A stretch of DNA of 63,824 nt, filler included, from Reclinomonas americana ATCC 50394 (lineage: Eukaryota), in assembly GCA_048213135.1 (NCBI GenBank). It is 5 parts of 5 records of this genome, joined end to end, with 100 filler letters (N's around TTAATTAATTAA, not from the genome) between each part and the next. Parts side by side here need not be neighbours in the genome. Positions count along the whole stretch, not along the records: positions 52,093 to 58,677 come from PS015435.1; 4 more parts are not named here. The stretch is one strand, 5' to 3'. The translations under genes were made by a program, and so were the position numbers. The notes beneath the pieces were generated by a model. That model had not been told where the DNA came from. It saw nothing but the letters and a program-made list of their open reading frames with translations, and did no database searches. Below, in pieces: positions 8,870-60,493 of this stretch. The number at the start of each line of letters is the position of its first letter. Position 1 is the first letter of the stretch.

Positions 8870-11628
8870 TCATGGATGGTGCTTCTTGAGGGCCGGTGGT
8901 GCAACGTCATCCTCCTCCTCTTCCTCTTCCTCCTTTCCCTCCTCGGCATCCTCGCCGGCTGCTTCCATGCGTTCGTCGTCACCGTCGTCTTCGTCCTCCT
9001 CATCAGATGCCGCCGCACTCGTTCTGCAGACATGCAAAGTCACTACAGAGAGAGAGAGAGAGAGAGAGAAGAGCGGGGCAGTTCGGTGGGGAGTCACGCA
9101 CCTCTTGCCGAGCGCTCGCCTCTTCGGTCCCCAGTTCTCGGGATTCACCACGAATTTGACGGTGCGCGACGGACGAGCGTCGTCACGAATGGCCCAGTCG
9201 ATGCCCTCCACGCTGCACGCCCAGGGGGGAGGAGGATTTCAGGAAACACACTCACACGCACGTGTACAGGCAGACACCCATTGATTGCACGCAACGTTGG
9301 CTCCTTGGCGAGAATCAGTGCACCGGCGGAGCCGGCGCGAGGATTGGCGGAGGGATGGTGATCGCGAACCCACTTGCGAACCACATCCCACAGCACGTGC
9401 GGCGGGCAGTCAGTTTTCAGGCCCTTGTAGTTTGCGTGCGTCACCGAGCATCGGTAGCCGAGGCTCACCAGCACCGATCTGCAAGAGGCGCTCTGTCGGC
9501 AACTGCGAATGACCAGTGCTCACTCACCTCACTCTCTTTCACTCACCTGAACAGCGCAATGCGTGGCACCGTGCTCTGCACCGTGCTAAACAGGCGCGAC
9601 ACGACATAAAATAGTGGCACGTCCGGCAGCTCTTCTTGCACGGCCGTCAACCTGCAAAGGGGCAGGTGCAGTGAGGAGGTGACACAAAGAGAGACTTGAT
9701 GGAGAACGTGAGGTGACGCACAAGCCGAGCATCTTGTTCTCACTGGCGAATTCGCCGCGATTGCTCTTGACGGACTCGATGAGGCGTGCCACAAACTCCT
9801 TGTCGTGCAGCGGTCCGTTCCATATCGGACCACCCACCTACAGCGTGCGTGGAATCAGTGGACGGAGAAATCTCCCTCTGCACACAGCAGCTATCGTGTG
9901 TGTGTTGCCACGCACCAGCACATTCGAACCGGTTTCGGCACACCGCGTCGGAGCCGTAGCGTAACCGGGCCAGTACTTGATCCCCTTGCCACTCTTACCG
10001 GCAGCGGAGCGCCCGAGTGGCTGCAGAAAGTGCGAATCGCAGCCGGTGCTCTGGTACACGTAGGATAGATTGCTGTGTGGAACACAGTGTGAGGAAACGA
10101 TGGAGAGCAGCTCCCCCCTCCATCTCCCTCCATCTCCAGCACACACCACATCACATCCTTGGCTTTCGACGCCTTCTCGAAGACTCGCACAAAGATGCGC
10201 ACGTAGAAATCAATGTACAGCGACATGACGGGCACAATGTGTCGCTGGTGACGTGCGGCGTGTTGTGCGATGCACGACAACACAATGCGGACTCCCTGCA
10301 ACCACAGAATAAGCAATCGACCGCCGTGGAGACCCTTTGTGTGGTTCCACCACTCACCATCTCGTGTCCGTACGGATAGTGCAGCGGCATCGAGCCGTAC
10401 TTGTTGAAGCACGTCTCCGGATGGTTGCCGCACAGAACCGCCATGTCGGTGCACGTGACGCACAGGAGACCTGCATCGAGAGAGCGATGAGCTGAGCGAC
10501 GACTGCAACCACTCGCCCACTCACATCGCCATGCAACTCACCTCCCGATCGTACCGCCTGCACACCGGCGTCGAGGAATTGCGATGCACTGCCGTACGGA
10601 TCGAGGTCTGCCACAGGAAGCGCGCGTGAGGTTGATGATGTGCCAAAGGCACAAGCAATCGCACGTCGTCTCACCGACAATCGTGAACGGTTCGCCGGCC
10701 GTTCGCAGCTGGTGCATTACGAATCTACAAAACAAACAAAAACAGCAGTGAGTGTACAAGACGTGTGCGCTGGGAGGGGCGGAGGGAACGCAACGTGGCG
10801 TCGCCTTGGCTCGGCACAAACTGCTCCGACTCGATGCCATTGAACTGCAGCAGCATTGACGATTGAGCAAGCACAGACACACACAGGCACAGGCACAGGC
10901 ACACGCACCGCCATGTTGCTTCGAATGTTCTCCACCGCGACCGGATCGAGATCGTTGGCCATGATTTTCTCCAGGCCAGGGATCTCTTTCCAGTACCGGA
11001 TGGAGCGCAAGCCTGACGGGGCGAAAAGAGCGAGAGCATGAGCGGCTTGTCACTGAAAGAAGCACACGCGCGTGGGACGAGGCACTGACCACTGGCGGCC
11101 AGTCCCTCGAGAATGCTGAGCGGTGCGACGGGTGTAGCGAATGCCGATGCTCCTTCTGTCGGCGCAGTGAGCAACGGTGCTTCTTCGTCTTCCACTTGCT
11201 ACGACGCAACTCCGCGCAAAGTACTGCTCATGCTCGATACGCCGTGTGCGGTCAAACTCTCGAATGACGGCGATCGACAGGTCGCGATTAATGACTTGCG
11301 CTGCGCGTGCGAGAGAGGGTCAGCAAATGCAAAAGAACCACCTTTGCATGCACACACACACCTGGGTTGTAAAACACTTCCTCGTCAGAGTCGGGGTACA
11401 GAATGCGTGCTTGGCCCTCTTGCACCACGCGGAAGCCTGCAATAGGGAGCACGCATGCATCCACAAATCATTTTTGAGACACTTCTTGCTTTCCCTCTCA
11501 TTCTGCTCACCTGCAGGCACTGATGCATCGGTGAGTGTGCTTGCTGCCGCAGCAGAGACCGTGGACACAGTGGAAGATGAAGAGGATGCCATGAGGGTTC
11601 TGCGCAGCTGCAGGAGACGAAAGAGCAT
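8870..11628 (-). CDS. TRM1: tRNA (guanine26-N2)-dimethyltransferase
   Basis: Spliced motifs [77 protein letters not shown] and [11 protein letters not shown]. Confidence 0.95.
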
Positions 11629-11769: not shown

Positions 11770-14700
11770 CTACTCCTCCGCCGCCGCCTCGTCGTCCGCC
11801 AGCACCTTGCGTCGCTTGGTCGGCATTGCCGCGTCACCACGCACGCTGCGCTCGAGTTCCTCCAGCCCGAGACACCCCAATTCATCATCGTCATCGTCGT
11901 CACCCGCATCGTCGCCTTTCTCTTTCTCTGCATTGGCACCGCCTGTCCACTCGCATTCACCCTCGTCGCCGTCGCCGTCGCCGTCTTCGCTCTTCACCAC
12001 CGTGCCGACCCCACTGCCCGACGCACCGTCCATGTCGTCGTCCATGGCTTCGACGGTGGTTGTCGTGGTGGCGGCAGCAGTCTCCGCGACGAGTGGACTG
12101 GTCACTGTTGAGTGCACAAAGGGCAGCAGCGACGCAATCTCGTCCGAGTCGAGCAGGGCGCCACGAGAGAGCTCCGAGTCGGCCGGCTCGCGATCCTCCT
12201 CGGGGAACGTCTCATTGATACCGTCTGTGCAGCCAGGGAGTGTCAGTCAAGCGCGACGCAGTAGCAGAGGCAGCAGCAGCAGAAGACGCACCTCGTCGGA
12301 ACTCAAAGATGCGCTTCAACTCGTCCTTGCCCAACGTGGGGTTCTTGTCGACCACCACGTCGACAATGACGTTGGAGAGCTGGTTCTTGCTCATCTGGCG
12401 CTGCAGCACGCGCTCCTCCAGAGTACCGACGCAGATCAGGCGGTAGATGAACACTTCCTTTTTCTGCCCGTCGCGCCACACACGAGCCTGGTGACGACTC
12501 AGCATGTCAGCGACTGGCTCGAGGAGGGAGAGGGAACACAACAAAGAGAGAGGTCACCATGGCCTGCTGGTCGGCAGCCGGGTTCCACTCGGGGTCGTAC
12601 ATGACGAGACGATTGGCACCGATGAGGTTCAGTCCTTTTTTCGTGGCGAGATGGTGAGCAACGGAGCGATGGCGACGACGGGATTGGGAACAGTACCGAC
12701 ACCACCGGCCTTGGTCGACAGGAGGAACACGCGCTCATTCGACCACGAAGCATTGAAGCGGTCCACTGAAAACGGGGAGGGAGGCGATGAGCGCCACCAG
12801 CACACACACACATGCATGTCTCGCACCACAAGCATAAACACACCAATCTGCTGACGCTTCTCGGCCGCCGTACTGCCGTCGAGACGCACAAAGGCAAGAT
12901 TGAGCGCCTGCAGCATCGGCACCATGCCGTCGAGACTCTGCGAGAAAGCGTCAACAGAAAGACAGACAACGAGACGGGTGGATGGTGACTGAGAGACAGA
13001 CCTGCGTGCTCTGCGACACAATGACCACCTTGTCGGTGGTCTCCTCGCGAATGCGGCTCAACAGGCGCGAGAGGACCAGCATCTGCATGCAAGCACAGGT
13101 CAATACAACTGTGAACCAACGAGCTAGTAAGGACAGCCAGCAAACCTTGCCAGACAGCGAGTAGTCGCCACACAACACGGCACCGTCGGCCAACTGCGCT
13201 TGCAGGTACTCGGGGGCAAACTTGGCGCGCACGCCATCCCACAACTCGTGATCCCACACCTGCTCAATGTCGCCATCGCCCTCCAGCGTGGCCATTTTCT
13301 TTTCTGCACACGACAGCACTCATGAGAAAGCGAAGGAGAGACAGAAATGACGTCCGCTGACTACGACGAACCGGCGGCCTTCAAGATGAGGTCGGGATGC
13401 GACAGCAGCTTGCGCAGTGCTTGAATGTACAAAAAGGCGGCATTCTGCAGAACAGAGACGCAGTCAGTGTAAGGAATGAACGCAGCAGTAGCAGAGCAGC
13501 ACGTGCCTTGTCTTGGCCTTGCGCAGAGCCTCCGCCGCGAGCCGAGATCAGTCGGTTCACAAAGCGTTGCGAGACGAGGTGGGCGTAAATCTCCTCCTGC
13601 AGTGGCGACATGCGCACAAACAGCACCAACTCGGCTGCACGGGCATTGAGGATGAGTGTCACGAGACGCAGTGATGGCGACAACAAAGACAAACCCTTGG
13701 GTGGCAGATGTTTCTGCAAAATGTCGGCCGTGCGACGAAGAAGAAACATTTGCGTGAGACGCATCAGCTCCTGACCACGAGAGGCACCGAGCGCCTTTTC
13801 GGCTGGTGTCGCTGACGGCTCGCGGGAGCGCGTAATGGGTTCACCGAAAATCTTGTTGAAGGTCTTGTCGTCGGCGAGCGAACCTGTACATGTGGAATAC
13901 ACCATCAGCCACACGTACGCGGCGCACGACTGTGAACGGGACTGACCGGGATTGACAAACGAGACGCAGGCGTAGAACTCGGTGAGGTTGTTCTGGATCG
14001 GCGTGCCGGTGAGAATGATGCGACGTGGCGTACGCATTGCGTTGAGGCTCTTGAACGTGGCCACCTGTGTGTGGAGTCAGGCAGTGACACACAAAAAGTG
14101 GAGAGGGCATGGACGTGCGCACCGTGTGGTTCTTCAGCCGATGGCCCTCGTCGCACACCAGCAGGTCGCACGGACATTCGGCGAGCAGCGCTCCCTGCAC
14201 TCGCCACGCGGTGAGATGCAAGACGAGGCAAGGGGAAGAGAGGGAGGGAAGAGAGGCTGGTACGCAACGTGAATACGAAAGTGCTCGTACGAGATGAGCA
14301 GGATGGGCTGAAAGCCGACACGAAAGTCGTTGATCTTTTGCTCCACCACCGCCTTGTTGGTGCCGCCGGAGCACACAATGGTCTTCAGGCGCGACGAGGT
14401 CAGCCACTTGCGAATCTCCTTCTCCCAGTTGTTCACCAGCGACGCCGGCGTCACCACAATTCCTTTTTGCACCAGTGGGCGACCCTGCAGCAACGCGTTG
14501 TGAGCGGTGACAGACAAGGCGGGCGGCGGAGACAAGCACACACCTCCGGCCCATGGTTCGTCAGTGCCCACAGCAGCGAAATGGTCTGCAGGGTCTTGCC
14601 GAGACCCATGCGGTCGGCAAGAATGGCACCGTAGCCGCCAGTGCTGCACAAGTAAAACAATAAAGGAAAGTGAGTGGCCCGCATGCAGTCATCTTGCCGG

Positions 14701-17010
14701 CAATCCCGCAACTTGTTGAGGCCAGTGACGCAGTTGTAGAGGAAGCGCACACCCTCACGCTGATGCGGACGCATCTGGGTGGCGAGGAATGCCTCGACGT
14801 ACACGGGAAAGGCGCCTTGCGAGACGCACATGCTGTGCTCGGCGGCGAGTAGGTTCTCGTCGTCGTTGATCACAAATGCGCCCTGCATCACACACAGTTC
14901 AGGCACCGTCACCATCTTCACCACCACCGAGATCACCAAACCTGCGGCACCACCACTGACGACACTTGCTTCACAATGCCGGTGCTGGCGCGCTTGCGGC
15001 CGCCCAGCAATGACTCGGAAATTGTCACCGCGATGCCCGGCGCCGCGGTTTCGGCTTCCGCGGCGGCAGCGGCGGCAGCCGCCGTAGCCTTCTTGCCCTT
15101 CTTGCCGACAAACTTCTTGTCGACGGCGGCCACACCCGTCACGTTGATGAACACACGGCCGCTGACAAAGTCCTCGTTGGGGATGCGCGACACGACCTCC
15201 ATCTCGTATGAACCGGCCGTCACCGGATCGCCCTCCTTCAGACGGAAGAGTGGCCGACTGACCACCGCTTGCTGTGAGCGAAAGAGTCGGCGACATGAGT
15301 GCAAGAAAGAGACGGGAGTGCGGGGAGAGACAAGGGTGGACGCACGTGCAGCGATTTGCCGCCAGTGTCGAGCAGATTCACTTTGCGCGTGGAGCACGAC
15401 AGGATGCCTGCAGATGGCGACCATGACAATGACGAGGGGAGGNNNNNNNNNNNNNNNNNNNNNNNNNNNNNNNNNNNNNNNNNNNNNNNNNNNNNNNNNN
15501 NNNNNNNNNNNNNNNNNNNNNNNNNNNNNNNNNNNNNNNNNNNNNNNNNNNNNNNNNNNNNNNNNNNNNNNNNNNNNNNNNNNNNNNNNNNNNNNNNNNN
15601 NNNNNNNNNNNNNNNNNNNNNNNNNNNNNNNNNNNNNNNNNNNNNNNNNNNNNNNNNNNNNNNNNNNNNNNNNNNNNNNNNNNNNNNNNNNNNNNNNNNN
15701 NNNNNNNNNNNNNNNNNNNNNNNNNNNNNNNNNNNNNNNNNNNNNNNNNNNNNNNNNNNNNNNNNNNNNNNNNNNNNNNNNNNNNNNNNNNNNNNNNNNN
15801 NNNNNNNNNNNNNNNNNNNNNNNNNNNNNNNNNNNNNNNNNNNNNNNNNNNNNNNNNNNNNNNNNNNNNNNNNNNNNNNNNNNNNNNNNNNNNNNNNNNN
15901 NNNNNNNNNNNNNNNNNNNNNNNNNNNNNNNNNNNNNNNNNNNNNNNNNNNNNNNNNNNNNNNNNNNNNNNNNNNNNNNNNNNNNNNNNNNNNNNNNNNN
16001 NNNNNNNNNNNNNNNNNNNNNNNNNNNNNNNNNNNNNNNNNNNNNNNNNNNNNNNNNNNNNNNNNNNNNNNNNNNNNNNNNNNNNNNNNNNNNNNNNNNN
16101 NNNNNNNNNNNNNNNNNNNNNNNNNNNNNNNNNNNNNNNNNNNNNNNNNNNNNNNNNNNNNNNNNNNNNNNNNNNNNNNNNNNNNNNNNNNNNNNNNNNN
16201 NNNNNNNNNNNNNNNNNNNNNNNNNNNNNNNNNNNNNNNNNNNNNNNNNNNNNNNNNNNNNNNNNNNNNNNNNNNNNNNNNNNNNNNNNNNNNNNNNNNN
16301 NNNNNNNNNNNNNNNNNNNNNNNNNNNNNNNNNNNNNNNNNNNNNNAGCAATCGCATACACACACAGCGCTGCGCGACAAACCGTCATTGTACGTCTTGT
16401 GTTTCTTGTTGGAGCGCTTGGTGTACATCACGCGATAGTACTCATGCTCGCCCTCGCTGTCGGCGGCAGCAGCAGCTGCGGCACCACCGCTGGCCGCAGT
16501 GGCGGTGGTCGTCGTGGTCGTCGTCGTTGTTGCCGGCTTTGTCGCGCCAGTGGCAGCTGCCGCAGCAGCAGCAGCAGCAGCCGGCGACGAGGCGTGCAGT
16601 GGGCGACGAAACGGCAGGCGCACAGTGGCGGCCGCTGTCACGCACAGAGAGAGTCATGACAATGATCACATGCATGCACACACGCACACGCAACGCTTTG
16701 GTGGAGCTGGCGACACAATGGCCACACTACCGTCGCCAGTGGCTGTGGCAGGAGACGCAGGGCGCGGTGCCTTCTTGACGCACTCATCACCACCATCATC
16801 TTCATCTTCATGATCATCAACTCCAGATGATGACGATGATGATGGAGGTGGCGGCGGCGGTGGTGGCTGCGGCTTTGGCGCTGTGCATGCGAGTGAGCGA
16901 GCAAGAGAGAGAGAAGAGAGAGAGAGAATGCACACACCAGCAGGCACCAACACTGGCGACTTGAACCCACCCGCCGCACGCGCAGCCAACAACTGCTTCT
17001 TCGACACCAT
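11770..17010 (-). CDS. RAD54B: RAD54B/Rdh54-like SNF2-family DNA translocase
   Basis: N-terminal [112 protein letters not shown]. Internal N-gap 15443-16346 lies in an intron. There may be an upstream exon. Confidence 0.92.
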
Positions 17011-18110: not shown

Positions 18111-18224
18111 GTACGGCACTCACACGTACGCAGTCGGCGTAAGTGAGGGCAGAACACGGGAGTGACTTATGGAGGGGGGTNNNNNNNNNNNNNNNNNNNN
18201 NNNNNNNNNNNNNNNNNNNNNNNN

Positions 18225-18236
18225 TTAATTAATTAA
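18225..18236. other. Artificial assembly spacer TTAATTAATTAA within a 100-nt N gap
   Basis: The identical 12-mer (stops in all six frames) is flanked by 44 N on each side and recurs four times. Confidence 0.95.
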
Positions 18237-18380
18237 NNNNNNNNNNNNNNNNNNNNNNNNNNNNNNNNNNNNNNNNNNNNGTCGCGCAAGAGACTCTCTG
18301 AGAGAGTGAGAGAGAAGAATGTGTGAGCAATGATTGAATGTGTGTGTGTGTGATCGTGTCTATATCGTGTGTCTGATTAC

Positions 18381-41000: not shown

Positions 41001-44000
41001 GAGGCGTCGGTGCAGTATGTGCGTGTGGCCCATGGCGACCGCAAGCTGGGCGAGAACCCGGATCTTACTCTTGGCGAGGCCGACCTGCTGGAGGCCGCTC
41101 AGCTCGACGCAGTTGCGTAGCCACATTGAGTGTTTCTTGTTGTTTGTCGCACGACTCAACATGGCTTCCAATCTGCACAGACCCTGGAGCAGCCAACACG
41201 CGCGAAATCGAAGCGCAGTGACCTGTTTGGTCAAAAGTCGCACGACGTTGGAGAGCGGCGTGGTGCCATGGCCGCCGCGCAGGCTGCGTTCGTCAACTAC
41301 TTTGACAACGACGACGACGACACTACCGATCAGATTGTGCCTCCGTCCATGCCCAAGTTTACACCTGGCAACCCATACCACTTCCGTGTGCGCTCCAGGA
41401 AGCGCCGCTCAAAGGTTTCAGGCAACTCGGTACGTGTGTGCCTGCGCCATGCTTGTCTGCGTCCCCAGTTTCGTGTTGGTGACGTACATTTTTCCCCTCT
41501 TCTTTTTTGCAGTATCCACTGGATCCGCAGTTCAAGGTCGTGCTGCTCGGTGAGTGTGTGTTCATGTACACTCCACCCCGTGCCGTGGTGCTCACTCACA
41601 TCTCGCGCCACAGAGACGGAGATGAGCGCGACCTTTGTCGATTTCTGGGGCTTTGTCACGGTGCTGCAGCGCTTCTCCAACCAGAGCAGCTTGTCGGCAG
41701 CCTTCCAGTATGTGTTCCCGAAGCTGCGCCCGAGCATGACTCTCTGCACCTACTCGATGTTCCTCAACAATGTCGAGCACCAGGTGAGTGTCTCCTTCGT
41801 GTTGCTGCTTGCCTGCCTGCGCACCGCGTTGCTGCTCACCCTTTCGTCTCGCAGTGCACGGTGCAAAAGCGCCCGCAGCTGTTCGAGGAGTTCGACAATG
41901 AGGGCGAGAACAACGAACTCGCGGCACTCATCAGTGCCAGTGACGAGGAGGTGTTCCTGATGGACGTGGGCCGCATGGATCCCAACGACGAGCTGATCAT
42001 CAAGGTCACGTACGCCATTGAGGCGCAGTACGACGCCGCGTCTCGGTCTCTGATGGCTGCGATTCCTCTGGGACCCCTGCCCGACTCTCACCGGTTTGTT
42101 TGTGCACAAGACGAACCGCATTCACATTTTGTCCACTCACACGCACACAGTGGCACTCCTGGTCGCGAGTTGTTCGACCTGACGTGGAACATGTCGCCAA
42201 CCATTCTCGACGTCCAGTCGCCGTCGCACACCCTGATGCTGAAGCAGACGGAGCATTCGGTGCGTGTGTGTCGCTTCCCTGTTATGGTGCGGAGCATGGA
42301 CTGAACCCGCCGCCGTGTTTCCTTTTTTTGTGTGTGCAGGCCACTGCCATCGCTGTAGCCGGCGATGCGCCGCAGGCGTACGCCGTCGTCAACCTGTATG
42401 TGCGCGACATGCCGTTCCCGCTCTGCACTGTCTTCAAGCACCCGAGCATCCAAGCACGCGACGGCTCCTCGCACTGCCTGGGCATTGCGCTTGTGCCGCC
42501 GAGCGACATTGCCCCGTCCGACATCAACACCGAGGTGGTCTTCATTGTCGACTGCAGTTGCGTCGGCACGCTGATGGGTGTTGGCGATTCATTCACGCAC
42601 GCACGCACTCACTTGCCATCTTCACCACACGCAGGTGGCTCGATGGAGGGCTCGCGTATTGCGGCCGCCCGTATGGCTCTGATGCTGTTTATTCAAAGTC
42701 TCGCCGAAGGCGTCTCTTTCACGATTGTCAAGTGCGTCGGCTGTCGGTGCACAGAGTCTCGTGTGTGTGGTGCTGACTATATTTGTGGCGGCTGGCAGGT
42801 TCGGATCAACGCACGAATTCCTGTGGCCGGAGACGCGACCCAACACCGAGATCACCAACGAAGAGGCGCGCCAGTTCTGCATGCAGCTCAATGCTGACAT
42901 GCAGGGCACGCACCTCGGCCCGGTGTTGGAGGAGATTCATCGCATGCCGGCTGTGGAGGGCAAGAGTCGCCAGGTGTTTGTGTTGACCGACGGACGTGTG
43001 AAGCACAAGCCGGGCTGCCTCGAACTTGGTGCGTGTGTGTGTGTCTGTCTGTCTGTCTGTGCTCGAGCGCCTCCTCTCCATGCTGCCAGTCGACTCACTG
43101 TACCACACTCGCATGCAGTTCGAGCCATGTCCACGACCACTCGTGTGTTTGCTGTGGGTATCGGAGACGAGGTCGACACGCACTTGGTGGTGGAGATGGC
43201 GCGTCTCGGCAATGGCCAGCACGCCTTTGTGGAAATCGACGAGGATGTGGATGTGTTGTCGGAGGTCGTCGTGCAGCAACTCACGGGTGCGTCACTGGGT
43301 TTGGTGTCACTGCCAAGATTGTTTGCCTCACTCACTCACACACACAGCTGCCCATGTGCCTTGCCTCATTGGTACGCGACTGGAGTTCAACTCGCAGCGT
43401 GTGCAACCGCTGTACGAGTATGTACCACCACTGTTTGTCAACTCGCCCACGATCATGTACGCCCACGCACCGGCGCTGTCGGAGCCCCTGTCCTTGGTGT
43501 GCTCGTACACCACAGGCAGTTGCGTACTTGTAATTCTCACACGTACTTCTTCCTCTGTCGTGTCGGTGCTGACTGAATGCACACAGCTCTGGAGCGTAAG
43601 AGCAGTCGTACAGAGGTCAGCTTCCGCGATCCACCTGTTGCCGACTTTACGCACAAGTTGGCCGCCGCACAGCGGACTCGCGATCTCGAGTCTCGCGATG
43701 TGTTTCGTGACCGCTCATTTCCAGTCCCTTTTGTGTCTCCTGTCCACTCATGCCTTTTCATGTTTCTGCGTGTGTGCAGGCCGCGAGAAAAGATCTTCAA
43801 CTTGGCGTTCATGTTTGGCGTTCCCTCGCCGTACACGTGCCTCGTGGTGACCGACATGTCTCCGCAAGCTGGTTTGTGTCACGAGACGAAAATCGCCCCA
43901 GTCACTCACCCTCATCAACTAACGCAAAATGTTGTCGCGCAGCTTCACCGCCTGCCACATACGCCGTGGTACTCAAGTCGCTCATCGAGACCGACAAGAA

Positions 44001-46978: not shown

Positions 46979-47077
46979 GTGCGCACTCTTCTCCTCTCTG
47001 CCTGTGTAGATTTTGTTGTGGTGGTGGTTGTTGNNNNNNNNNNNNNNNNNNNNNNNNNNNNNNNNNNNNNNNNNNNN

Positions 47078-47089
47078 TTAATTAATTAA
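47078..47089. other. Artificial assembly spacer TTAATTAATTAA
   Basis: Same 12-mer in a 100-nt gap. Confidence 0.95.
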
Positions 47090-47244
47090 NNNNNNNNNNN
47101 NNNNNNNNNNNNNNNNNNNNNNNNNNNNNNNNNCCCCCCTCCTCCTTATCCCCATCCTGTTCAATTACACAACACCATTAAAGAAGCAACGTTAACTTCA
47201 ACGACCGACGGAGTCCATGTCCCCCGATCGGAGATTTGAACATC

Positions 47245-50149: not shown

Positions 50150-50204
50150 AGAATGTGTAAATGTACACACACACACACACACACTGTATACCGGATTCCT
50201 TCCT

Positions 50205-50973
50205 TCATTGGTGTCGTTTCCGTGCACCATGTCTCACGCCGCCAGCAGGCACAGGTGGCACTCGCGAGGAACCATCTGCGCGCCACTCTGTCAGACCGTG
50301 CATGTCACGAGACGAGCACGAACACGCACACACAACACCTTTTCTTGTGGTCGACCCACTACCGTGCCGCATGCCGCCTATTGGCATCGGTGGCGTAATG
50401 ATGCTCACCGATGGCGTGGCGGTCTCTGCCGACATTGACGACGACGACGACGATAATGCAGATCGCTGGGGCGGTGAGTCTGCGCAACCCGAAGCGCTTG
50501 ATGAGTACGCGCACCAGACATCCACAGCAACACGCACACACTCACCGTCGTCGGGTAACCGCGAATACAACGACCATATCGAGTAGGCAAACGAGAACTG
50601 TGCGCCACCACAGTCAATCACGGAGCATTGTGCACCGCGTCCATCACCCGCCGCAACTTCAAGCATTTGCAGGAACAACAGCGAGGCCACCGACACCACA
50701 ACGTACTTGAACTCGGGATCGGCGACACCGCCCGGTGGCAACGTGGTGTTGGCCAGCAAGNNNNNNNNNNNNNNNNNNNNNNNNNNNNNNNNNNNNNNNN
50801 NNNNNNNNNNNNNNNNNNNNNNNNNNNNNNNNNNNNNNNNNNNNNNNNNNNNNNNNNNNNNNNNNNNNNNNNNNNNNNNNNNNNNNNNNNNNNNNNNNNN
50901 NNNNNNNNNNNNNNNNNNNNNNNGAGGGCGCAGAGGCTGAGGTTGGTGTGGTTGCTGCTGAAGATGAGGCCAT
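50205..50973 (-). CDS. Hypothetical protein
   Basis: MASSSAATTP... (gap) ...PEFKYVVVSVASLLFLQML..., with two plausible GT-AG introns and a stop at 50205. Confidence 0.4.
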
Positions 50974-51034: not shown

Positions 51035-51961
51035 ATGGGGCGTCAACGTTGCGTGTCTCAGCTCCTGTGCATGCGTGTGTCTCAGTGTGAGAGGGGGAGA
51101 GTGTGTTTGTGTGTGTGCGCGTGCTGAGGGAGTGTGTGCGTCTGTCACCGAGACATGTCGACTTTCCCGCCTCTTCCTCACACACTCGCATGCGCAGGGC
51201 GACAAGTTCAGCTTCCATCAGCACCACCACCACCACAAGCAGTTGTGCATTACACTCCCGACACACACACACACTCACACCAGTCGCTCACTTGCATGTG
51301 CGTGTGTGTGCGCAGGAGGAAGAGGCAGAAGCGGACGACGCAGCCTATGTCGACGACAACGACGATGATGTGGTGACTGGCGAGGACGATGAGCAGCAGG
51401 AGGGAGATGATGAGGACGACATTGATGATGATGCAGCTGCTCCAGTCCACGATGCATACAACGACGATGATGACGACGATGATGATGATGATGATGAGTC
51501 TGACATGTCAGAGTCGGAAGTGCGTGCACTGCGCATGCATCTCGGGCGTCCGTGGAAGCTCGGCCACAGGGGAGATGATGATGATGATGATTATGGGGAG
51601 GGGGAGGAGGAGGATGATGACGGCGACGATGGGTTGAGAGCGGCGGTGCATGCGCATCGGTTTCCGGATGCCGAGAGCTCGGCCACGGCGCAGGTGATGG
51701 CGTGGGAGATGCAGGAGCAGGAGGCGAGAGTGGCGCGGCATGCGCAGTGGGCGGCGTACATTTGTGCTGTAGATATGGTGTGTTGTTGGGAGAAAGGGGG
51801 AGAAAGGAGGAGACAACTGTGTGGTCTAAACTGTGCGTGTGCAGGTGCTGTGCTTCCGGTTGTTCCTGAAAAAGCCACACATCCGCACGGCCTTTGGTCT
51901 CCTGTTCTCCTCCAGTGGACTCATTGGATCGCTGTCGCAGAAGAAGGGCATGGTGCTCATG
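51035..51961 (+). CDS. 5' part of an acidic hypothetical protein with probable TM segments, truncated
   Basis: MGRQ|RRQVQLPSAPPPPQA|EEEAEADD...(poly-Asp)...YICAVDM|VLCFRLFLKK...; the exons splice in frame. Confidence 0.5.
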
Positions 51962-52036
51962 GTGCGTGTGTGCTCGTACAGTGTGTGTGTTTNNNNNNNN
52001 NNNNNNNNNNNNNNNNNNNNNNNNNNNNNNNNNNNN

Positions 52037-52048
52037 TTAATTAATTAA
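52037..52048. other. Artificial assembly spacer TTAATTAATTAA
   Basis: Same 12-mer in a 100-nt gap. Confidence 0.95.
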
Positions 52049-52092
52049 NNNNNNNNNNNNNNNNNNNNNNNNNNNNNNNNNNNNNNNNNNNN

Positions 52093-55000
52093 GTGCGCGA
52101 GAGTGCATTGATGGGCGAGACACGCTCATTCTTCCGTCTGACTCGCAACAGAGGAGCCTACGTGTCCTTCGTTGTCGGCTTCGGCGGCGTCGGCGGAGGA
52201 TGTGGTGCGGGCCGAGTGGCTGCTCGGCCGCAGTATCCTGCAATGCTTGCTTGCTGCGCATCAGCACCAGCTGCGGTCGATCGCGTTTCCGCTGCTGGGC
52301 ACGACTTTTCCCGTGTCTCGGGCGGCTGTTGCGTCGCTTTGTTTCTCGCGCACATTCCGCCTGTGGCTCACTTTCTGCACGTGTGCAGGCCGTCTTCTTT
52401 GAGACTGTACTGCGTTTCCTCAGCGATCACAGCTTCACTCCCGTGGCGTGCATCCGCCTGGTTGACACGCGTCGCGACGTTGTGCATGTCATGTGCCAAC
52501 AGGTTTGTGTGAAAAAATGTGTCTTGTGAAATCTCGAATGCGCTTCTCACCCGTGCACGCGAGATTCAGTTTGACCGCCGTGTTGGCTCGTCGTTCGACG
52601 CTCGCTCCTCAGGCCTCTCCTCCACCGGCGCCTCGTCGACCATTTCACTCTCCTCAGTGCCCGTATTTGATTCGTCGACCGGTGGCCTGCTGGCTCACTC
52701 AAGTGGCGGCAGCGGCAGCGCCAGCAGTAGTGTTGGTGGTGGCCTCGGTGGCAGCGCTAGTGGCAGCGGTGGGGGTACAGCAAGTGGAAACGGCGGCTCA
52801 TCACATCGTCGTCTGCGCGGTGCGGCGCCGGTGAATCCCGACATGGCGCTCTCGCTGAGTGGTCGTGTGGGCCAGCAGCGTGCAGAGGTGGAGAAGCTGG
52901 CGCGCACTTGTCGTGTGCTCAGTCGATGGCAGCGAGCCGGCTCCGTCTCCGAGGCGCACCAGTCGGTGGTGGACGCGCAGTTCGATGTGGAAGACAAGGA
53001 ATCCATGCTGTTGTCGGCGGTCGCCGCGCTTCGTCGTGAACTGCTGCAGCAACCACCGCACGAGGAGGGTCTCACGCCGGCGCTGTCGGAGCTCGGGAAG
53101 CAGCGAACGTTGGCGGCGGTGGCTCTCGAACAATCGCTGCAGGGATTGTTGGATGCGCTGGAGTCGGAGCGCCGCGATACGACGAGCGAGCTCGACGCAT
53201 TGCAGCGTGTGTGGTCCGACATTGTGTCGCGCCACTCCACGCCCATTCTCTTCAACGGCGACATTTCGGACTCGTCAGACACAAGTGTGGCCTCCAGTCC
53301 CACTCACGCTCTCTCTGATGTCGGTGAGTGAGCTCGCCTCACTCACTGGGTTTCTTTATCATTCGGCACCACTCACACCACACATGAATGCAGAGACACG
53401 ACGGGTGACTCGCGATGGCATTCGGTGGATGCATGCTCATGCTGACGCGATTCGACTCGCCGCCGAACGCACACAGCGCGTGTGTGCCGAGGGTGGCGAG
53501 CTGTCGGAGTGGTTGGAGGCGCTGGAGGACGAAGATGGTGTGTTGTCGCATGCGTTGACGGCGGGAGTAGCACTGTGGTCCGAGCATGGTGCGCGGTTAC
53601 GCGGAGCCGTGCAGTGTGGCATCGATGAGGTGCGTTTGTTTGTGGTGCGGGACTACACCGATTGACGACTGCATGTGGCTGACTTGGGTTTCTCGCAACA
53701 GATGCATTGGCGCCTTGATCGTATTGTCACCGCGGAGCGAGTGGCCAAGGAGAAGAGATTACAGGCGAGCAAGCAAGCGGCGCGACAGCACCGCATTCGA
53801 CTGGAGGGCGCACTGCACGAATTGAAGCGCCTGGAGTCTAAGGCCGCACCGGTTCGCTTACTCACAGTATGAGAGAGGTGGTGTGGGAAACTCATGAAGC
53901 TGGCTGGTGTGCAGGTGGCCTCGGTGGTGTGTGCCGATGGTGAGCCGCTGACTCCGCTGTTGGATGTGGTCGCCGGTGACGACGACGAGCACTTCCCCGA
54001 TGCACGACTGCTTCGACTCGACGCTGTCAAGGTGAAGTGATGCACTCATGCACGCACAGAGGTGACGAGTCGAGAAATTGATTGCTGAAACCACACGCGC
54101 ACCGTGCAGCAACTGGGCTACATGGTGAAGCTGGTGGCCGCAATGCGCACTATGGATGAAATGTTCCCGTACGTGTACGCCGTGCGTTATCCCGACATTG
54201 CAGTTGGAGAGGTGCGATGCGGTGTGATGTCGAGTGCGTGCATGCGTGCGTGAGTCGCACTCACACAGCACGTGGTGTCGTAGGTGCAATTGAGTCCGCC
54301 AGTGACCATGTTCTACGAGGCACTGGTGGCGGAGAGCCGGTCTACCAACGGCGATGTCTCACATCTGGTGGACGAGTTCACTGTGTACATTGCGGCGTCG
54401 CGGCTCGGTGCCGGCATCAAGGTGGAGGTCGACGACTTCTGGGAGGAACTGCGCGCAGCCGTGTTGTACAATACGAATCGCGATTGGCTGCATAGGGCGC
54501 CAAGCACCGCTGTGTCGGTACGCGTGACATGTCGCCGACATGCTGTGTGTCGGCAGCGTATCTTACTTGAATTATGTGCAGGGAACTGTGTTGTGGGATT
54601 CACTCACCCAGTGGCTGTCGCTGGGACACCCGATCCGCATCCTGTCTCCATCGTTCCACGCCGTCGATAGCAAGTTCCTCGACATGCTGCTGACTGCACG
54701 CACACAATCGTCGTCGTCTGCCGTCACTTCCACCGGCAAACTTCTTGCGGTTTCTGTTCTCGGAACCAGCGGCAGTGGCAAGTTGAGTGCTCGGCCATCC
54801 ATTAGTTTTCCCAGCTCGACTCACTCAGCGTGCAACATGCAGGTCGACTCTTCTCAGGGAGCTCTTCCGCTGCGATTTCGAGGTGTCAGACGTGTCACGC
54901 AAGCGCGGCGTCATGCTGACACACAAGCCCGTCACTGAAGTTGCTCGCGTGCGTGATGTGGTTGTGATGGACACAGATGGCCTCGAGTCGACTACCGACC

Positions 55001-57571
55001 AGGAGCGGTTAGTTCTTTCTGTCTTTTTTGTTGCTTGGCAGATCCACTTATACTGTGTTTGTATTCGACGAACAGGTGGAACATGCAACGACTGGCGGTC
55101 ATGATGCTGGCCGTGTCCAACGTGGTGTTGCTGAATGTGAGCAGTGCGCGTTTGGAGGAAGATGCTGAGACACTGTGCGAAGCCTGTATGGTGGCACTCA
55201 AGCAGGTGAGTGGGGGGAAGAGAGAGAGGGAGGGAGAGAGAAAGTCTCGTTTGCTGACGCAGTGCGTGCAGAGTGTCGTGCGCATTGTTCCACCACGCTT
55301 CTTCTTCGTGGTCCGTGATGCCAGTGAACTCGCCGACTGGACTGCCAGTATCCAGCAGACGTTGAGAAGAGCGGCTGAGCGGCATCACATCGATCTGGAA
55401 GATCTGCCATTCCTCACCAGTGACGATAGTGTGGTCCACTTGCCGTCGGTGCGTGGCCATGATGCTTCTTCGTTGTTACTCACTGTGAATGATTTCACTC
55501 ATGGTGGTCTCTTGTCGCGGGCACACAGCTGCTGGATTTGGACTCGACCGCTTGCAGTCTGCTCGAGGATTTGCGGACGACCATCTTCTCGTATGCGAGC
55601 TACACTGGTGAGTTCACACGCTGGTGAACAACCAACCCTCACTGATCGCGTGCTCATATCTATGTGCGCAGCATGGACTGGTCTCTATCGCGATACACTA
55701 GTCTGGTGATTCCAATCTCTTTGTGCCCGAATCACTTCAACAACAACTCACTTTGTGCATTGCTACAGGTCCGATCAACGAGACCGCACGTGGTCGCCGG
55801 TGCTCGCCGCTCTGGGTCGGCCTCTGCGCGACGAAGAAGCGCATGATTCGCCGTCGCCCGACGCTTCCTCTGGAAGCGAGTTGGCGAGACTGCGTGAACG
55901 AGCCGGTGTGATTCAAGAAATGTTGGATAAGCAGTCGTCGCTCGTGTCGGCGCTCTCTAACGTGCGCTCGCTTGCTCGCTCCTTGCCGTGTGCTCTACGA
56001 GTCGACGCACTCACTGCTTTCCACCTCCATGCTTGTGCAGTTTATCGAGACGCACGAGGCTCGCTTGTATGCCATTCGAGACGGCATCGTGGAGACGAGT
56101 CGCTTGCGGGAGGCATTCGACACGCTGCGAGTTTCGTGTGCCACCATCGTCGACGCTGTTTGTTTTCGTCGCTGATGTAGTGTCGCAGAGTCTCTTGCCG
56201 AGCCACCGCGAGCTGCAGCATGCTCTTGCGCTGTGCGAAGTCAGCTTGACTGACGACAGCGCGCTGCCGAGCGACGATCGCAATGTGCTGAACGTGCACC
56301 GCAGCTTGCCGCTGGGCCAGCTCATTCTCACCGCCATGAGTGCCAACAATGTGTTTGAGTTGCGTACGCAACGGGCGCCTCTGGTGTTGCTGTCACCTCA
56401 CTCACGGTGCACGCTGTACAGGGCCACCGAAGCTTATGCGGCGTGCGGCCTCGACACTGTCCGCGGTACGTTCCGTCAATACGAGGAGACTTCGACGGCG
56501 TTTGCTTCCGCCCTGACCGTGCGAGGTGCCCGGCTGACGCCAAGTGAGTTTCTTCATTGCATGCTGCGCGCTGTGCTCGGACTCATCACAGTTGACGCCA
56601 CCGCAGTCCTCCTGCTACCGATTCAGCGCATGCAACAGGTGAGACTGGCGATCGAATGCCATGCTGCTCGTTTGTTTCGTGTCCTGACGTGCGCCGCCGC
56701 AGTACCACTTGTTGCTGGAGCGTGCTATCCGACACACGCCGTCTCTGTTCCGCACATACATGCCGATCCGCTCGCCAGACGGCACGTACGGACTCAGTGA
56801 CAGAATGGATGAAGTGCCGGAGATTGAGCGTGAGAGGCAAGCCTATCACTTTGTGCTGCAAAGCGTGAAGGAATTGGAGCTGCGCATGGTAGCGCCGGAG
56901 CTGCAAGCATCGCTGGCCTTGCCGCCGTCGCGCGGTGATTCTCGTCAGCTTGTGCGTCACTCTCCGCTAAAGTTGTCGACACCGGCACGACTCTTCCGAC
57001 ACGGCGACACGACGCCTGTGGAGCTGGCTCTCTTTTCCGATTGTTGCGTGTTCTGCAAGTCCGCCGGCGATTCGTGCATGCTGCTCACGGTGTGGAACGC
57101 AGATTTCGTGTTCCGGCGCCCTGTCAGTGCTCGGAAACGGCAGGGTCGAGAGACAGCCACAGTGTGGCCACTGTCGCAAGTCGTATCGTGTGCAGAAGCC
57201 GGTGAACCACCAGCTGGTGAGTTCCGCGCTGCATGCGCGATGTTGCTGTGCGTGCTCATTCGGTGCTGTGCATGCAGGCCTGAAAGACGCCCGGCTCGGC
57301 GGCTTCTGGTTTGCCGTGCAATGCGGCGTGCCAAAGAGCAAGACGTGCTTGTTTTGGTGCCACGATGAGCGAGAGGTAACTTACTCAAGTGCCTCCTCTC
57401 TCTCTGTCTCTTCCTCGAGCCTTACGTTGTATTTCCACCCCTCCGCGGCAGGCCAAAGAGTGGGTAAACGACGTCAATCGGTTACTGCGTGCGCAGCGCC
57501 GCTTGTCTGACACCTCCCTGAACGGCTTCTCCATCTCACCCGATCAACGACGAGAGAGAAACAGCGGGCCG
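52093..57571 (+). CDS. Multidomain protein: Macro (partial) - helical region - GB1/RHD3/VLIG-type GTPase - DH - PH
   Basis: Macro: LRSIAFPLLGT..FP..AA..FFETVLRFL. GTPase: VSVLGTSGSGKSTLL, VMDTDGL and FFVVRD. DH: LLLPIQRMQQYHLLLERAIRHTP. PH: LALFSDCCVFCK...EAKEWVNDV. Both ends lie in gaps. Confidence 0.8.
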
Positions 57572-58221
57572 NNNNNNNNNNNNNNNNNNNNNNNNNNNNN
57601 NNNNNNNNNNNNNNNNNNNNNNNNNNNNNNNNNNNNNNNNNNNNNNNNNNNNNNNNNNNNNNNNNNNNNNNNNNNNNNNNNNNNNNNNNNNNNNNNNNNN
57701 NNNNNNNNNNNNNNNNNNNNNNNNNNNNNNNNNNNNNNNNNNNNNNNNNNNNNNNNNNNNNNNNNNNNNNNNNNNNNNNNNNNNNNNNNNNNNNNNNNNN
57801 NNNNNNNNNNNNNNNNNNNNNNNNNNNNNNNNNNNNNNNNNNNNNNNNNNNNNNNNNNNNNNNNNNNNNNNNNNNNNNNNNNNNNNNNNNNNNNNNNNNN
57901 NNNNNNNNNNNNNNNNNNNNNNNNNNNNNNNNNNNNNNNNNNNNNNNNNNNNNNNNNNNNNNNNNNNNNNNNNNNNNNNNNNNNNNNNNNNNNNNNNNNN
58001 NNNNNNNNNNNNNNNNNNNNNNNNNNNNNNNNNNNNNNNNNNNNNNNNNNNNNNNNNNNNNNNNNNNNNNNNNNNNNNNNNNNNNNNNNNNNNNNNNNNN
58101 NNNNNNNNNNNNNNNNNNNNNNNNNNNNNNNNNNNNNNNNNNNNNNNNNNNNNNNNNNNNNNNNNNNNNNNNNNNNNNNNNNNNNNNNNNNNNNNNNNNN
58201 NNNNNNNNNNNNNNNNNNNNN

Positions 58222-58545
58222 CGAAACGGTTCAGGAGCAGCGGCTGCGGCTGCTGCTGCCGCCGCCGCCGCTGCTGCCGCTGGTACCTCCGCGGCGCCAG
58301 GATCGGCGGAGAAGAAGGACAGGCGTGGCTCCAAGTCACGTGCGACGCCAGCCACGACAGCAGCCGCCGACGAAAGCGGTGGTGGTGGCAAGCGTGGAGG
58401 ACGTGGTCGTGGTGCTGGTGGCGGTGGCCGTGGTGGCCGCGGAGGCGGTCGTGGTCGCGGTGGTGGCAAGCGCGGTGGCGGTGCGGCCGGTAGTGGTGGC
58501 GCTGACGCAGGTGCCGATGGTGGCGGCGATGTGTCCATGGAGTAG
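58222..58545 (+). CDS. Ala/RGG-rich C-terminal exon of uncertain parent gene
   Basis: Frame ...GGKRGGRGRGAGGGGRGGRGGGRGRGG...DVSME*, followed by an AT-richer 3' UTR-like sequence. Confidence 0.5.
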   Translation, partial: RNGSGAAAAAAAAAAAAAAAGTSAAPGSAEKKDRRGSKSRATPATTAAADESGGGGKRGGRGRGAGGGGRGGRGGGRGRGGGKRGGGAAGSGGADAGADGGGDVSME

Positions 58546-58721
58546 AGAGTTGTGCGCGTGTTGTGATCGCTGCAATGCTTCGATAACAATAACAACAACA
58601 ACAATTCGCATTAGGTGTACATTATTGGGGGGGGGGGGGAAGGGGGTTCATAGTATCCGGTGAGAGATGGCAGGCAGNNNNNNNNNNNNNNNNNNNNNNN
58701 NNNNNNNNNNNNNNNNNNNNN

Positions 58722-58733
58722 TTAATTAATTAA
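58722..58733. other. Artificial assembly spacer TTAATTAATTAA
   Basis: Same 12-mer in a 100-nt gap. Confidence 0.95.
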
Positions 58734-58777
58734 NNNNNNNNNNNNNNNNNNNNNNNNNNNNNNNNNNNNNNNNNNNN

Positions 58778-60154
58778 AGCGCAAACGTGACCACGAGGTG
58801 CACCGCAACATCGCGAATGTTGGCCACATCCTTGACCGGGTACTTTTCGTGAATGACCTTGAGCGGCTGCACCTTCTTCACGGCGCCATTGAAGGAGCCG
58901 CAGTGCGGGCACTTTTTCGCGCCCTTCTTGCACAGCTCCGCCACTCGCTTCACAATCTGTCGTCGCTCGCGCACCTCCAGTCCCTTCTTGCGCAGCTGCA
59001 CACGGTACCGCTCCGCATCCAGGTCGGGCAGCAGGATGCGCGAGCAAGTCTTGCAGATCTGCAGTACAGAGAGAGGTGGGTAAGAGGGAGGGAGAGGGAG
59101 AGGGAGGTGGGNNNNNNNNNNNNNNNNNNNNNNNNNNNNNNNNNNNNNNNNNNNNNNNNNNNNNNNNNNNNNNNNNNNNNNNNNNNNNNNNNNNNNNNNN
59201 NNNNNNNNNNNNNNNNNNNNNNNNNNNNNNNNNNNNNNNNNNNNNNNNNNNNNNNNNNNNNNNNNNNNNNNNNNNNNNNNNNNNNNNNNNNNNNNNNNNN
59301 NNNNNNNNNNNNNNNNNNNNNNNNNNNNNNNNNNNNNNNNNNNNNNNNNNNNNNNNNNNNNNNNNNNNNNNNNNNNNNNNNNNNNNNNNNNNNNNNNNNN
59401 NNNNNNNNNNNNNNNNNNNNNNNNNNNNNNNNNNNNNNNNNNNNNNNNNNNNNNNNNNNNNNNNNNNNNNNNNNNNNNNNNNNNNNNNNNNNNNNNNNNN
59501 NNNNNNNNNNNNNNNNNNNNNNNNNNNNNNNNNNNNNNNNNNNNNNNNNNNNNNNNNNNNNNNNNNNNNNNNNNNNNNNNNNNNNNNNNNNNNNNNNNNN
59601 NNNNNNNNNNNNNNNNNNNNNNNNNNNNNNNNNNNNNNNNNNNNNNNNNNNNNNNNNNNNNNNNNNNNNNNNNNNNNNNNNNNNNNNNNNNNNNNNNNNN
59701 NNNNNNNNNNNNNNNNNNNNNNNNNNNNNNNNNNNNNNNNNNNNNNNNNNNNNNNNNNNNNNNNNNNNNNNNNNNNNNNNNNNNNNNNNNNNNNNNNNNN
59801 NNNNNNNNNNNNNNNNNNNNNNNNNNNNNNNNNNNNNNNNNNNNNNNNNNNNNNNNNNNNNNNNNAAAGGGGGGAGAGAGAGAGAGAGGCAGACAGACAG
59901 ACAGAGAGAGGTAGATGATGATGATGTTGATTCTGAGCGCACCATGGACAACACCTCCAAGGTGAACGGGAACAGGCCATGGTGGAACACTGGCAAGTTG
60001 AGGCGCACAAAGCCAAAATGACCGGGGCAGTCGGCCAGTCCCAAGCCACACGTCTGGCACGACGGATTGCCCTTCTTCTCCGACACACCCTGCACATGTA
60101 TGCATGCAAATCATCAGTGTGTGTGTGCACATTCCCTTTCTTTCTTTCTTTCTT

Positions 60155-60192
<38 letters not shown>

Positions 60193-60493
60193 TCACCATT
60201 CGACGATCAATGGGTCCGTACGGGTTTGGAGTCCATGTGCCTGGCTGATAGAGACCACGATTGACAACTTCCACCTCGGCAATCGCGCGAATCTCACGCG
60301 CAGACAAGGTGCTGAACTGGATGTAGTCACTGCATCAGTGTGTGAAAGAGTGTGAGTGAGAGAGAGAGAGTGAGTGTGGGAGGCCATGTTGCACTGACAT
60401 CTTGCGCGGGGGCGTGGTGGGCATCACGTATCGCTCATCGCTGGCCGCGAAGATGTCGCGACAGCCGGCGTTGAGCGCAGTGTGTGTGCTCAT
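58778..60493 (-). CDS. RPC1: RNA polymerase III largest subunit, 5' part only
   Basis: [56 protein letters not shown] and [13 protein letters not shown]...IHEKY. Truncated at the spacer. Confidence 0.9.

Follow-up and report, generated by a model that had tools for sequence, protein, structure and literature searches.

GTPases of the GB1/RHD3 type belong to the dynamin superfamily and include RHD3/Sey1, atlastin, GBP and URGCP/VLIG. The replacement of NKxD by RD at G4 is the signature of the GBP/atlastin/RHD3 branch. GBP, atlastin, RHD3/Sey1 and VLIG act by nucleotide-dependent self-assembly on membranes. How large-GTPase assembly passes to other pathways is, to our knowledge, mostly unknown, and we know of no member of the RHD3/Sey1/atlastin family with a fused RhoGEF. 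A candidate for a fusion of a GB1/RHD3-type GTPase with a RhoGEF is located in Reclinomonas americana ATCC 50394. It was detected within a stretch of 63,824 nt (the window) and is carried by a 6.6-kb scaffold at 52093-58677 (PS015435.1). The locus is read as a fragment of one large intron-rich gene, encoding the end of a macro domain, a Ser/Gly linker, about 440 further residues, a GB1/RHD3-type GTPase domain and a Dbl-type DH-PH cassette. The chances that this reading holds in full are judged to be about even.

The macro/GTPase/DH-PH combination was not found in the databases and literature searched, using single-exon queries and a partial coverage of the literature. The initial annotation of this DNA had claimed that no characterized protein shows the combination; none emerged from literature or protein searches, neither of which was exhaustive. 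Word-index protein searches with exon 17 and with exons 11 and 12 found nothing. Locus scans of a metagenome collection, of prokaryote genomes and of viral contigs revealed no relative. The locus is rated as a new arrangement of known domains.

Spliced reading frame

The visible gene is incomplete at both ends. A scaffold join (51993-52092), consisting of 44 N, a 12-base linker and another 44 N, cuts the 5′ end, and the sequence left of it need not be its genomic neighbor. The 3′ end is hidden by a 650-N gap inside the scaffold (57572-58221). The N-free stretch comprises the first 5479 bases of the scaffold (52093-57571). The gene model was obtained by reading the three plus-strand frames and joining them at GT-AG sites. 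The joined frame extends from 52142 to 57571 on the plus strand, where all parts of this gene described below are also located. It contains 20 exons, 19 GT-AG introns and 1389 codons without a stop. Intron lengths range from 58 to 80 nt in 18 of the 19 introns, the remaining one having 40 nt (55962-56001). Searches for families, PDB chains and structures were performed with single exons or with exons 11 and 12 together, which are joined by an in-frame, stop-free intron of 66 nt.

Several properties distinguish the joined frame. The remaining five frames of the same joined DNA contain 21-41 stops, and reading exons 4-8 through their in-frame introns introduces six stops. The guanine-cytosine (GC) content at codon positions 1, 2 and 3 is 0.65, 0.48 and 0.69, respectively, and exons have a GC content of 0.61 versus 0.54 for introns. 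Donor sites follow a GTNNGT-like consensus, with G at position 5 in 13/19 and T at position 6 in 11/19 introns. Acceptors carry a C at position -3 (CAG) in 15/19 introns, compared to 101/290 (35%) of all AG dinucleotides in the region. As a chance test, the fewest 40-80-nt GT-AG introns were determined that keep any frame open across 52142-57571. The real plus strand stays open with 12 introns, fewer than its reverse complement (17) or the shuffles, in favor of one open frame. Among 20 mononucleotide shuffles, 18 need 20-30 introns and two offer no path. An open frame alone is weak evidence at such a GC content; the case is built on splice consensus, codon-position bias and homology signals.

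The initial annotation had proposed frame-consistent GT-AG junctions between four parts, and these were borne out at its coordinates by the 1389 stop-free codons. Exon ends found independently agree with its part boundaries (52502; 54582-55448; about 55890-57500), and the segment LSLGHPIRIL, quoted as preceding the P-loop, is located at 54615-54644. Its order of a macro part, about 545 amino acids of linker and helical sequence, a GB1/RHD3-type GTPase and a DH-PH tandem recurs in the gene model; independent support for each domain is modest. Spliced frame, boundaries and pre-P-loop segment were thus confirmed as observed, while the first 49 bases lie out of frame and no domain reaches a Pfam gathering score.

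Candidate GTPase domain and DH-PH cassette

The GTPase domain spans 54582-55705 and is encoded by exons 9-14 (54582-54781, 54843-55007, 55076-55205, 55272-55448, 55529-55607 and 55672-55705). A Walker A motif (54762-54846, residues 687-694) becomes canonical after removal of intron 9, which splits its Lys codon. The DxxG motif, DTDG (54970-54981, residues 736-739), follows 42 residues past the end of Walker A, and a hydrophobic-RD motif, VVRD (55308-55319, residues 804-807), another 64 residues past DxxG. A motif scan of all 1389 residues identified one Walker A, one DxxG and one hydrophobic-RD motif, and no [NT]KxD. Walker A as G1, DxxG as G3 and RD as G4 occur in the order and with the family-like spacing of GB1/RHD3-type GTPases. 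Exon 10 (54 amino acids, directly after the P-loop) yielded only two Pfam rows, both from the GB1/RHD3 branch. RHD3_GTPase (PF05879) was matched with E 0.029 and 14.2 bits over profile positions 9-65 of 245, in a fitting register, and URGCP_GTPase (PF25683) with E 0.16 and 11.1 bits over positions 203-256 of 396. The remaining G-domain exons, scanned singly, gave no Pfam match. Look-alikes of exon 10 in comparisons by a protein language model (ESM) were RHD3, GBP and URGCP clusters with scores of 0.83-0.87 (GBP 0.87).

RHD3, Sey1 and atlastin share with the locus the best Pfam row of exon 10 as well as Walker A, DxxG and RD in place of NKxD. They differ by a transmembrane hairpin and a helical stalk after their G domain, neither of which is visible here. 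The DH domain starts about 120 residues after the RD motif and therefore leaves no room for a helical stalk. No transmembrane hairpin was found in the visible part, which ends at 57571; the two 19-mers of highest hydrophobicity (Kyte-Doolittle 1.97 and 1.89) fall within the cores of the DH and G domains. Without a visible membrane anchor or stalk, the protein is not a GTPase of the atlastin/RHD3/Sey1 type for fusion of the endoplasmic reticulum. Soluble Sey1-like GTPases (PTF1-3/PPP1) exist (PMC9407449; Baek et al., 2022), and the protein resembles PTF1-3 in having no visible membrane anchor.

GBPs (PF02263) possess the same GB1/RHD3-type motif set, and GBP clusters occur among the ESM look-alikes. 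The locus differs from this family (reviewed in PMC9005921) in several respects. No exon has a Pfam GBP match, neither a C-terminal helical domain nor a CaaX end is visible, and the long N-terminal extension is unlike GBPs. URGCP/VLIG proteins (GVIN1) resemble the locus by the second Pfam row of exon 10 and by a long, probably helical region ahead of the G domain. In addition, the sequence at 54615-54644 resembles the segment preceding the G domain in URGCP/VLIG. Exon-by-exon Pfam scans detected neither the first 200 positions of the URGCP profile on exons 6-9 nor a VLIG-type C-terminal module on any exon after the G domain. In contrast to URGCP/VLIG, a DH-PH cassette follows the G domain here.

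The DH (RhoGEF) domain is assigned to 55769-56741, beginning at about 55899, and is distributed over exon 15 (55769-55961), which joins the GTPase to the DH domain, exon 16 (56002-56130), exon 17 (56189-56638) and the start of exon 18 (56703-57216). Intron 17 splits a conserved PIQR-type helix at the DH end. Exon 18 encodes the end of the DH domain and, past a conserved linker, the N-terminal half of the PH domain, including ALFSDC at 57027-57044. The second PH half is encoded by exons 19 and 20 (57278-57375 and 57452-57571), with a Trp-bearing C-terminal helix at 57452-57487 and a frame that stays open into the gap. Motifs of the Dbl family occur in the right order, with the PIQR-type helix at the end of the DH domain, followed by an LFSD-type strand and finally the Trp-bearing helix.

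In ESM comparisons, the first match of exon 18 was a cluster with a SOS1/NGEF-type PH domain (PF22697; score 0.95, 177/256 features shared). A cluster with RhoGEF in 55% of its members ranked second (0.94), and another RhoGEF cluster scored 0.90. Nine of the ten best family-bearing matches share a family or clan. An exhaustive phmmer search with exon 18 retrieved two proteins at E values up to 0.001. P0001 shares 46% identity across query residues 4-128 (E 1.1e-21). It is a 139-amino-acid fragment from an unannotated contig of 3697 nt and the sole member of its cluster. Exon 18 is therefore genuine coding sequence, and its conservation extends to one further organism at least. The second protein, P0002 (E 2.4e-4), was judged a spurious relative; it is a repeat protein matched in four short stretches. 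The roughly 70 residues that separate DH from PH (56742-56948, plus strand) are among the best-conserved parts in the comparison with P0001. This insert may represent a lineage-specific element of the RhoGEF.

Dbl-family RhoGEFs, in which DH and PH form a tandem, are thus resembled in the ESM matches of exon 18, the PIQR-type helix, the LFSD-type strand and the Trp helix. The cassette is too divergent for Pfam on single exons. The DH domain comprises about 230 residues in the model, longer than usual, and the insert of about 70 residues precedes the PH domain. A fusion of such RhoGEFs to a large GTPase was not found in the searches made here. The 40-nt intron at 55962-56001 is doubtful; the alternative is a 1-base frameshift into the frame of an open reading frame at 55912-56175. 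GTPase and DH domain are joined within exon 15 and across two short introns, and neither a stop nor a plausible start occurs in frame between them. GTPase and DH-PH cassette very probably belong to one gene.

The initial annotation had called a GB1/RHD3 (VLIG-like) GTPase and a DH-PH tandem. The GTPase call agrees with the motif set, the two weak Pfam rows and the ESM look-alikes, whereas the VLIG likeness lacks the URGCP N-terminal part and the VLIG C-terminal module. The DH-PH call is backed by ESM look-alikes, conservation in P0001 and motif order, but not by a Pfam or PDB match. Its proposed check by profile searches, made here with Pfam exon by exon, returned sub-threshold rows for Macro, RHD3_GTPase and URGCP_GTPase, but none for RhoGEF or PH.

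Candidate macro part and scaffold surroundings

Exon 1 (52142-52312) corresponds to the C-terminal third of the Pfam Macro profile (PF01661; E 0.0017, 18.7 bits, positions 74-104 of 118) and contains an IAFP motif at 52280-52291. With an alternative donor at 52328, the exon ends at 52327 and is followed by a 61-nt intron; the sequence 52142-52327 scored 18.8 bits (E 0.0016). A PDB sequence search with the macro exon returned macro-domain chains in 6/6 rows (PARP14 and macroH2A1.1, the latter including two fusion constructs) at E 0.063-0.43. In NCBIfam, a protein-ADP-ribose hydrolase row was obtained for the macro part at E 0.21. Exon 2 (52389-52502) is defined by its frame and splice sites and has a codon score of +8.0 bits. 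It lies past the end of the Macro profile, has no Pfam match of its own and is read from its sequence as the putative strand and helix that complete the macro fold.

As the scaffold starts at 52093, just the last third of the macro domain is represented. The N-terminal half, with the ADP-ribose-binding loops and the catalytic residues, lies outside the assembly. An acceptor-like CAG occurs at 52147-52149, and the frame of exon 1 is closed upstream by a TGA at 52139-52141. Bases 52093-52141 are outside the gene frame and gave no Pfam match in their own frame. A macro C-terminal half at 52093-52502, as annotated initially, is supported by the macro signal in exon 1, but its start at 52093 is out of frame and its extent as a half is solely due to the scaffold edge. 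The end of the preceding scaffold (51830-51991) was considered as the missing N-terminal half and rejected; neither Pfam nor PDB searches showed a macro signal there, and adjacency is not given. The likeness to the macro domains of PARP14 and macroH2A1.1 consists of the Pfam Macro match and the PDB rows over the IAFP strand and the preceding helix. Compared with ADP-ribose-binding macro domains, the loop after the IAFP strand looks about three residues shorter, and ADP-ribose binding is therefore uncertain.

A Ser/Gly-rich low-complexity linker (52564-52842; S 28%, G 23%) forms the first part of exon 3 (52564-53319). It is followed by a region of about 440 amino acids (52843-54517) without a recognized family, which starts at an in-frame ATG (52843) and is rich in Ala, Leu, Val, Arg, Ser and Glu. 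The region continues from exon 3 through exons 4-8 (53396-53629, 53702-53851, 53915-54031, 54110-54211 and 54284-54517). Its exons matched only chance-level rows in Pfam, NCBIfam and PADLOC (E 0.059-0.74), far under the cut-offs. The region is probably helical.

The window is a chain of small scaffolds. Its joins (18181-18280, 47034-47133, 51993-52092 and 58678-58777) each consist of an identical 12-base linker, carrying a stop in every one of the six frames, flanked on both sides by 44 N; additional N runs occur within the scaffolds. Neighbors across these joins therefore say nothing on gene order. Right of the 650-N gap, 456 bases of low-complexity sequence extend to the scaffold end. They include an Ala- and Arg/Gly-rich open frame on the plus strand (58222-58545) with a stop at 58543-58545, followed by AT-richer sequence. 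This frame has no Pfam match; several frames are open on both strands, and the codon score favors another one (58223). This frame may represent the gene's tail or something else. Pfam scans of four of the eight antisense open reading frames of at least 130 amino acids in 52093-57571 gave no match. No Rfam family was found on either strand, and a tblastn search of the gene model against the window revealed no paralogue within it.

The other scaffolds carry ordinary eukaryotic gene pieces. These include a Trm1-type tRNA methyltransferase (9894-10520, minus strand), an SNF2-related helicase (13384-15377, minus strand), an adenylate kinase (28246-29583, plus strand), a WD40 propeller (31355-32605, minus strand) and a VWA domain (42683-43573, plus strand). 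A weak match to a lebercilin-like coiled coil (35030-36511, plus strand; E 3.5e-5) may hint at a flagellated organism. The scaffold that follows the gene-bearing one in the window contains the N-terminus of the largest RNA polymerase subunit (59868-60110, minus strand; Pfam RNA_pol_Rpb1_1, E 1.4e-11), broken by a 754-N gap. Long CA/GT and GA/CT dinucleotide runs at 50150-50400, 51090-51370 and 60110-60250 lie in presumably non-coding stretches of neighboring scaffolds.

Alternative readings and biological meaning

One open reading frame is no proof of one transcript, and intron 2 (52503-52563) is the sole link of the macro part to the rest. A fusion of the macro part to the GTPase-DH-PH protein is considered rather probable. 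A tentative alternative, regarded as doubtful, proposes two tandem genes, a small macro-domain gene ending at 52527-52529, where the frame stops if intron 2 is retained, and a second gene starting from ATG 52843, with the Ser/Gly stretch untranslated. With a codon score trained on exons 4-20, the linker gains only +3.8 bits over 93 codons in the best of three frames and is negative in the Gly/Ser repeats at 52693-52780, which speaks for two genes and against the fusion. The same holds for the openness of a second frame over most of the linker (one stop); frame 2 is open over 52466-52834, hence openness means little there. ATG 52843, one of only two ATGs in frame within exon 3, has a favorable start context (purine at -3, G at +4) and coincides with the point from which strong coding signal returns. 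For intron 2, the acceptor used in the model (52563) has a G at -3, found in only 3/19 introns of the model. However, the donor at 52503 agrees with the consensus, and an acceptor that is in phase and matches the consensus is available 6 nt downstream at 52569, an intron of either 61 or 67 nt being of typical length. In the model frame, the Ser-rich part of the linker (52573-52690) reaches +4 to +9 bits per 25 codons, and the GC content of the linker is exon-like (about 0.60-0.74 per codon position; exons 0.61, introns 0.54). Two genes would also require a 3′ untranslated region, an intergenic spacer, a promoter and a 5′ untranslated region to be squeezed into 313 bases.

Further results weigh against one intact gene with all the assigned domains. 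Two spots resemble frameshifts or odd splicing (52139-52200 and the 40-nt intron 55962-56001) and could be sequence errors or marks of a decaying gene. Every Pfam score stays under its cut-off, Macro with 18.7 bits (gathering cut-off 22), RHD3_GTPase with 14.2 (42.4) and URGCP_GTPase with 11.1 (55), and an E value of 0.029 is not significant alone among 19 pieces scanned. The ESM scores carry no E values and serve as leads only, those of exon 10 all being below 0.9. No DH or PH exon scanned singly matched RhoGEF (PF00621) or PH in Pfam at E values up to 10. In PDB sequence searches, neither exons 10, 11 and 12, 17 or 18 nor the A1 profile retrieved a GTPase, DH or PH chain; the rows returned were at chance level, and exon 10 returned none. 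AlphaFold models of single exons were poor, with predicted local distance difference test (pLDDT) values of 33.8 (exon 18 with P0001) and 36.8 (exon 17), and therefore offer no fold evidence. A full-length relative was not found in protein searches.

These results bear on two alternatives to the single multidomain gene. A chance resemblance in one or more domain calls, e.g. to another class of NTPase or to a protein other than a RhoGEF, would account for the sub-threshold Pfam scores, the missing RhoGEF, PH and PDB matches and the lack of a usable structure model. It is held unlikely; for each domain three independent hints agree, namely motif set and spacing, top Pfam rows and ESM look-alikes. 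The scores remain sub-threshold because the domains are split into 4-6 short exons each, which were scanned one at a time. Likewise improbable is a decaying pseudogene or a product of contig errors, from which no intact multidomain protein is made. Its indications are the frame break at 52139-52141 with an uncertain macro-like continuation upstream, a DH start that looks more DH-like (judged by the domain consensus) with a 1-base shift than with the atypical intron at 55962-56001, and a very fragmentary assembly with 23 N runs in 64 kb. Single-base errors are nevertheless expected in such a draft and would not mean a pseudogene. Decay also fits poorly with 1389 open codons and ordinary introns, a codon-position GC bias kept throughout and a DH/PH exon that is 46% identical in another organism.

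For the single multidomain gene, a mechanism can be proposed by analogy with GB1/RHD3-type GTPases. The G domain would serve as a GTP-dependent switch of dimerization or oligomerization. This switch might position or release the DH domain in cis, leading to local activation of a Rho/Rac-type GTPase, and the PH domain would provide membrane contact. The macro domain, if part of the same protein, could add an input related to ADP-ribose, by binding or hydrolysis. The initial annotation had suggested that ADP-ribose sensing may be coupled to membrane or actin remodeling, possibly as anti-pathogen defense; the macro half expected to bind ADP-ribose is missing from the assembly. A far-reaching version, put forward as a speculation with a very low probability, regards the protein as a cell-autonomous sensor-effector of the protist. 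ADP-ribose perceived via the macro domain would trigger GTP-driven self-assembly of the G domain, switch on the RhoGEF in cis and cause local remodeling of actin or membranes, e.g. around an intracellular invader. A single polypeptide would then parallel the large immune GTPases found in animals and plants and feed straight into Rho signaling. PADLOC, a library that covers prokaryotic defense only, had no match among 18 pieces of the locus. In the examined passages of a study on conflict systems (PMC7159879; eLife, 2020), macro domains figure only as effectors within bacterial systems.

If the parts are separate genes or the domain calls fail, the locus would reduce to an ordinary protist RhoGEF beside a macro-domain gene. 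If the reading as one protein is true, the fusion of a G domain with DH-PH would point to a direct route from large-GTPase assembly to Rho/Rac activation. The macro domain in the same protein would tie this route to ADP-ribose signaling. If confirmed by complementary DNA, the gene would offer a compact protein for in vitro tests of the coupling between large GTPases and Rho.

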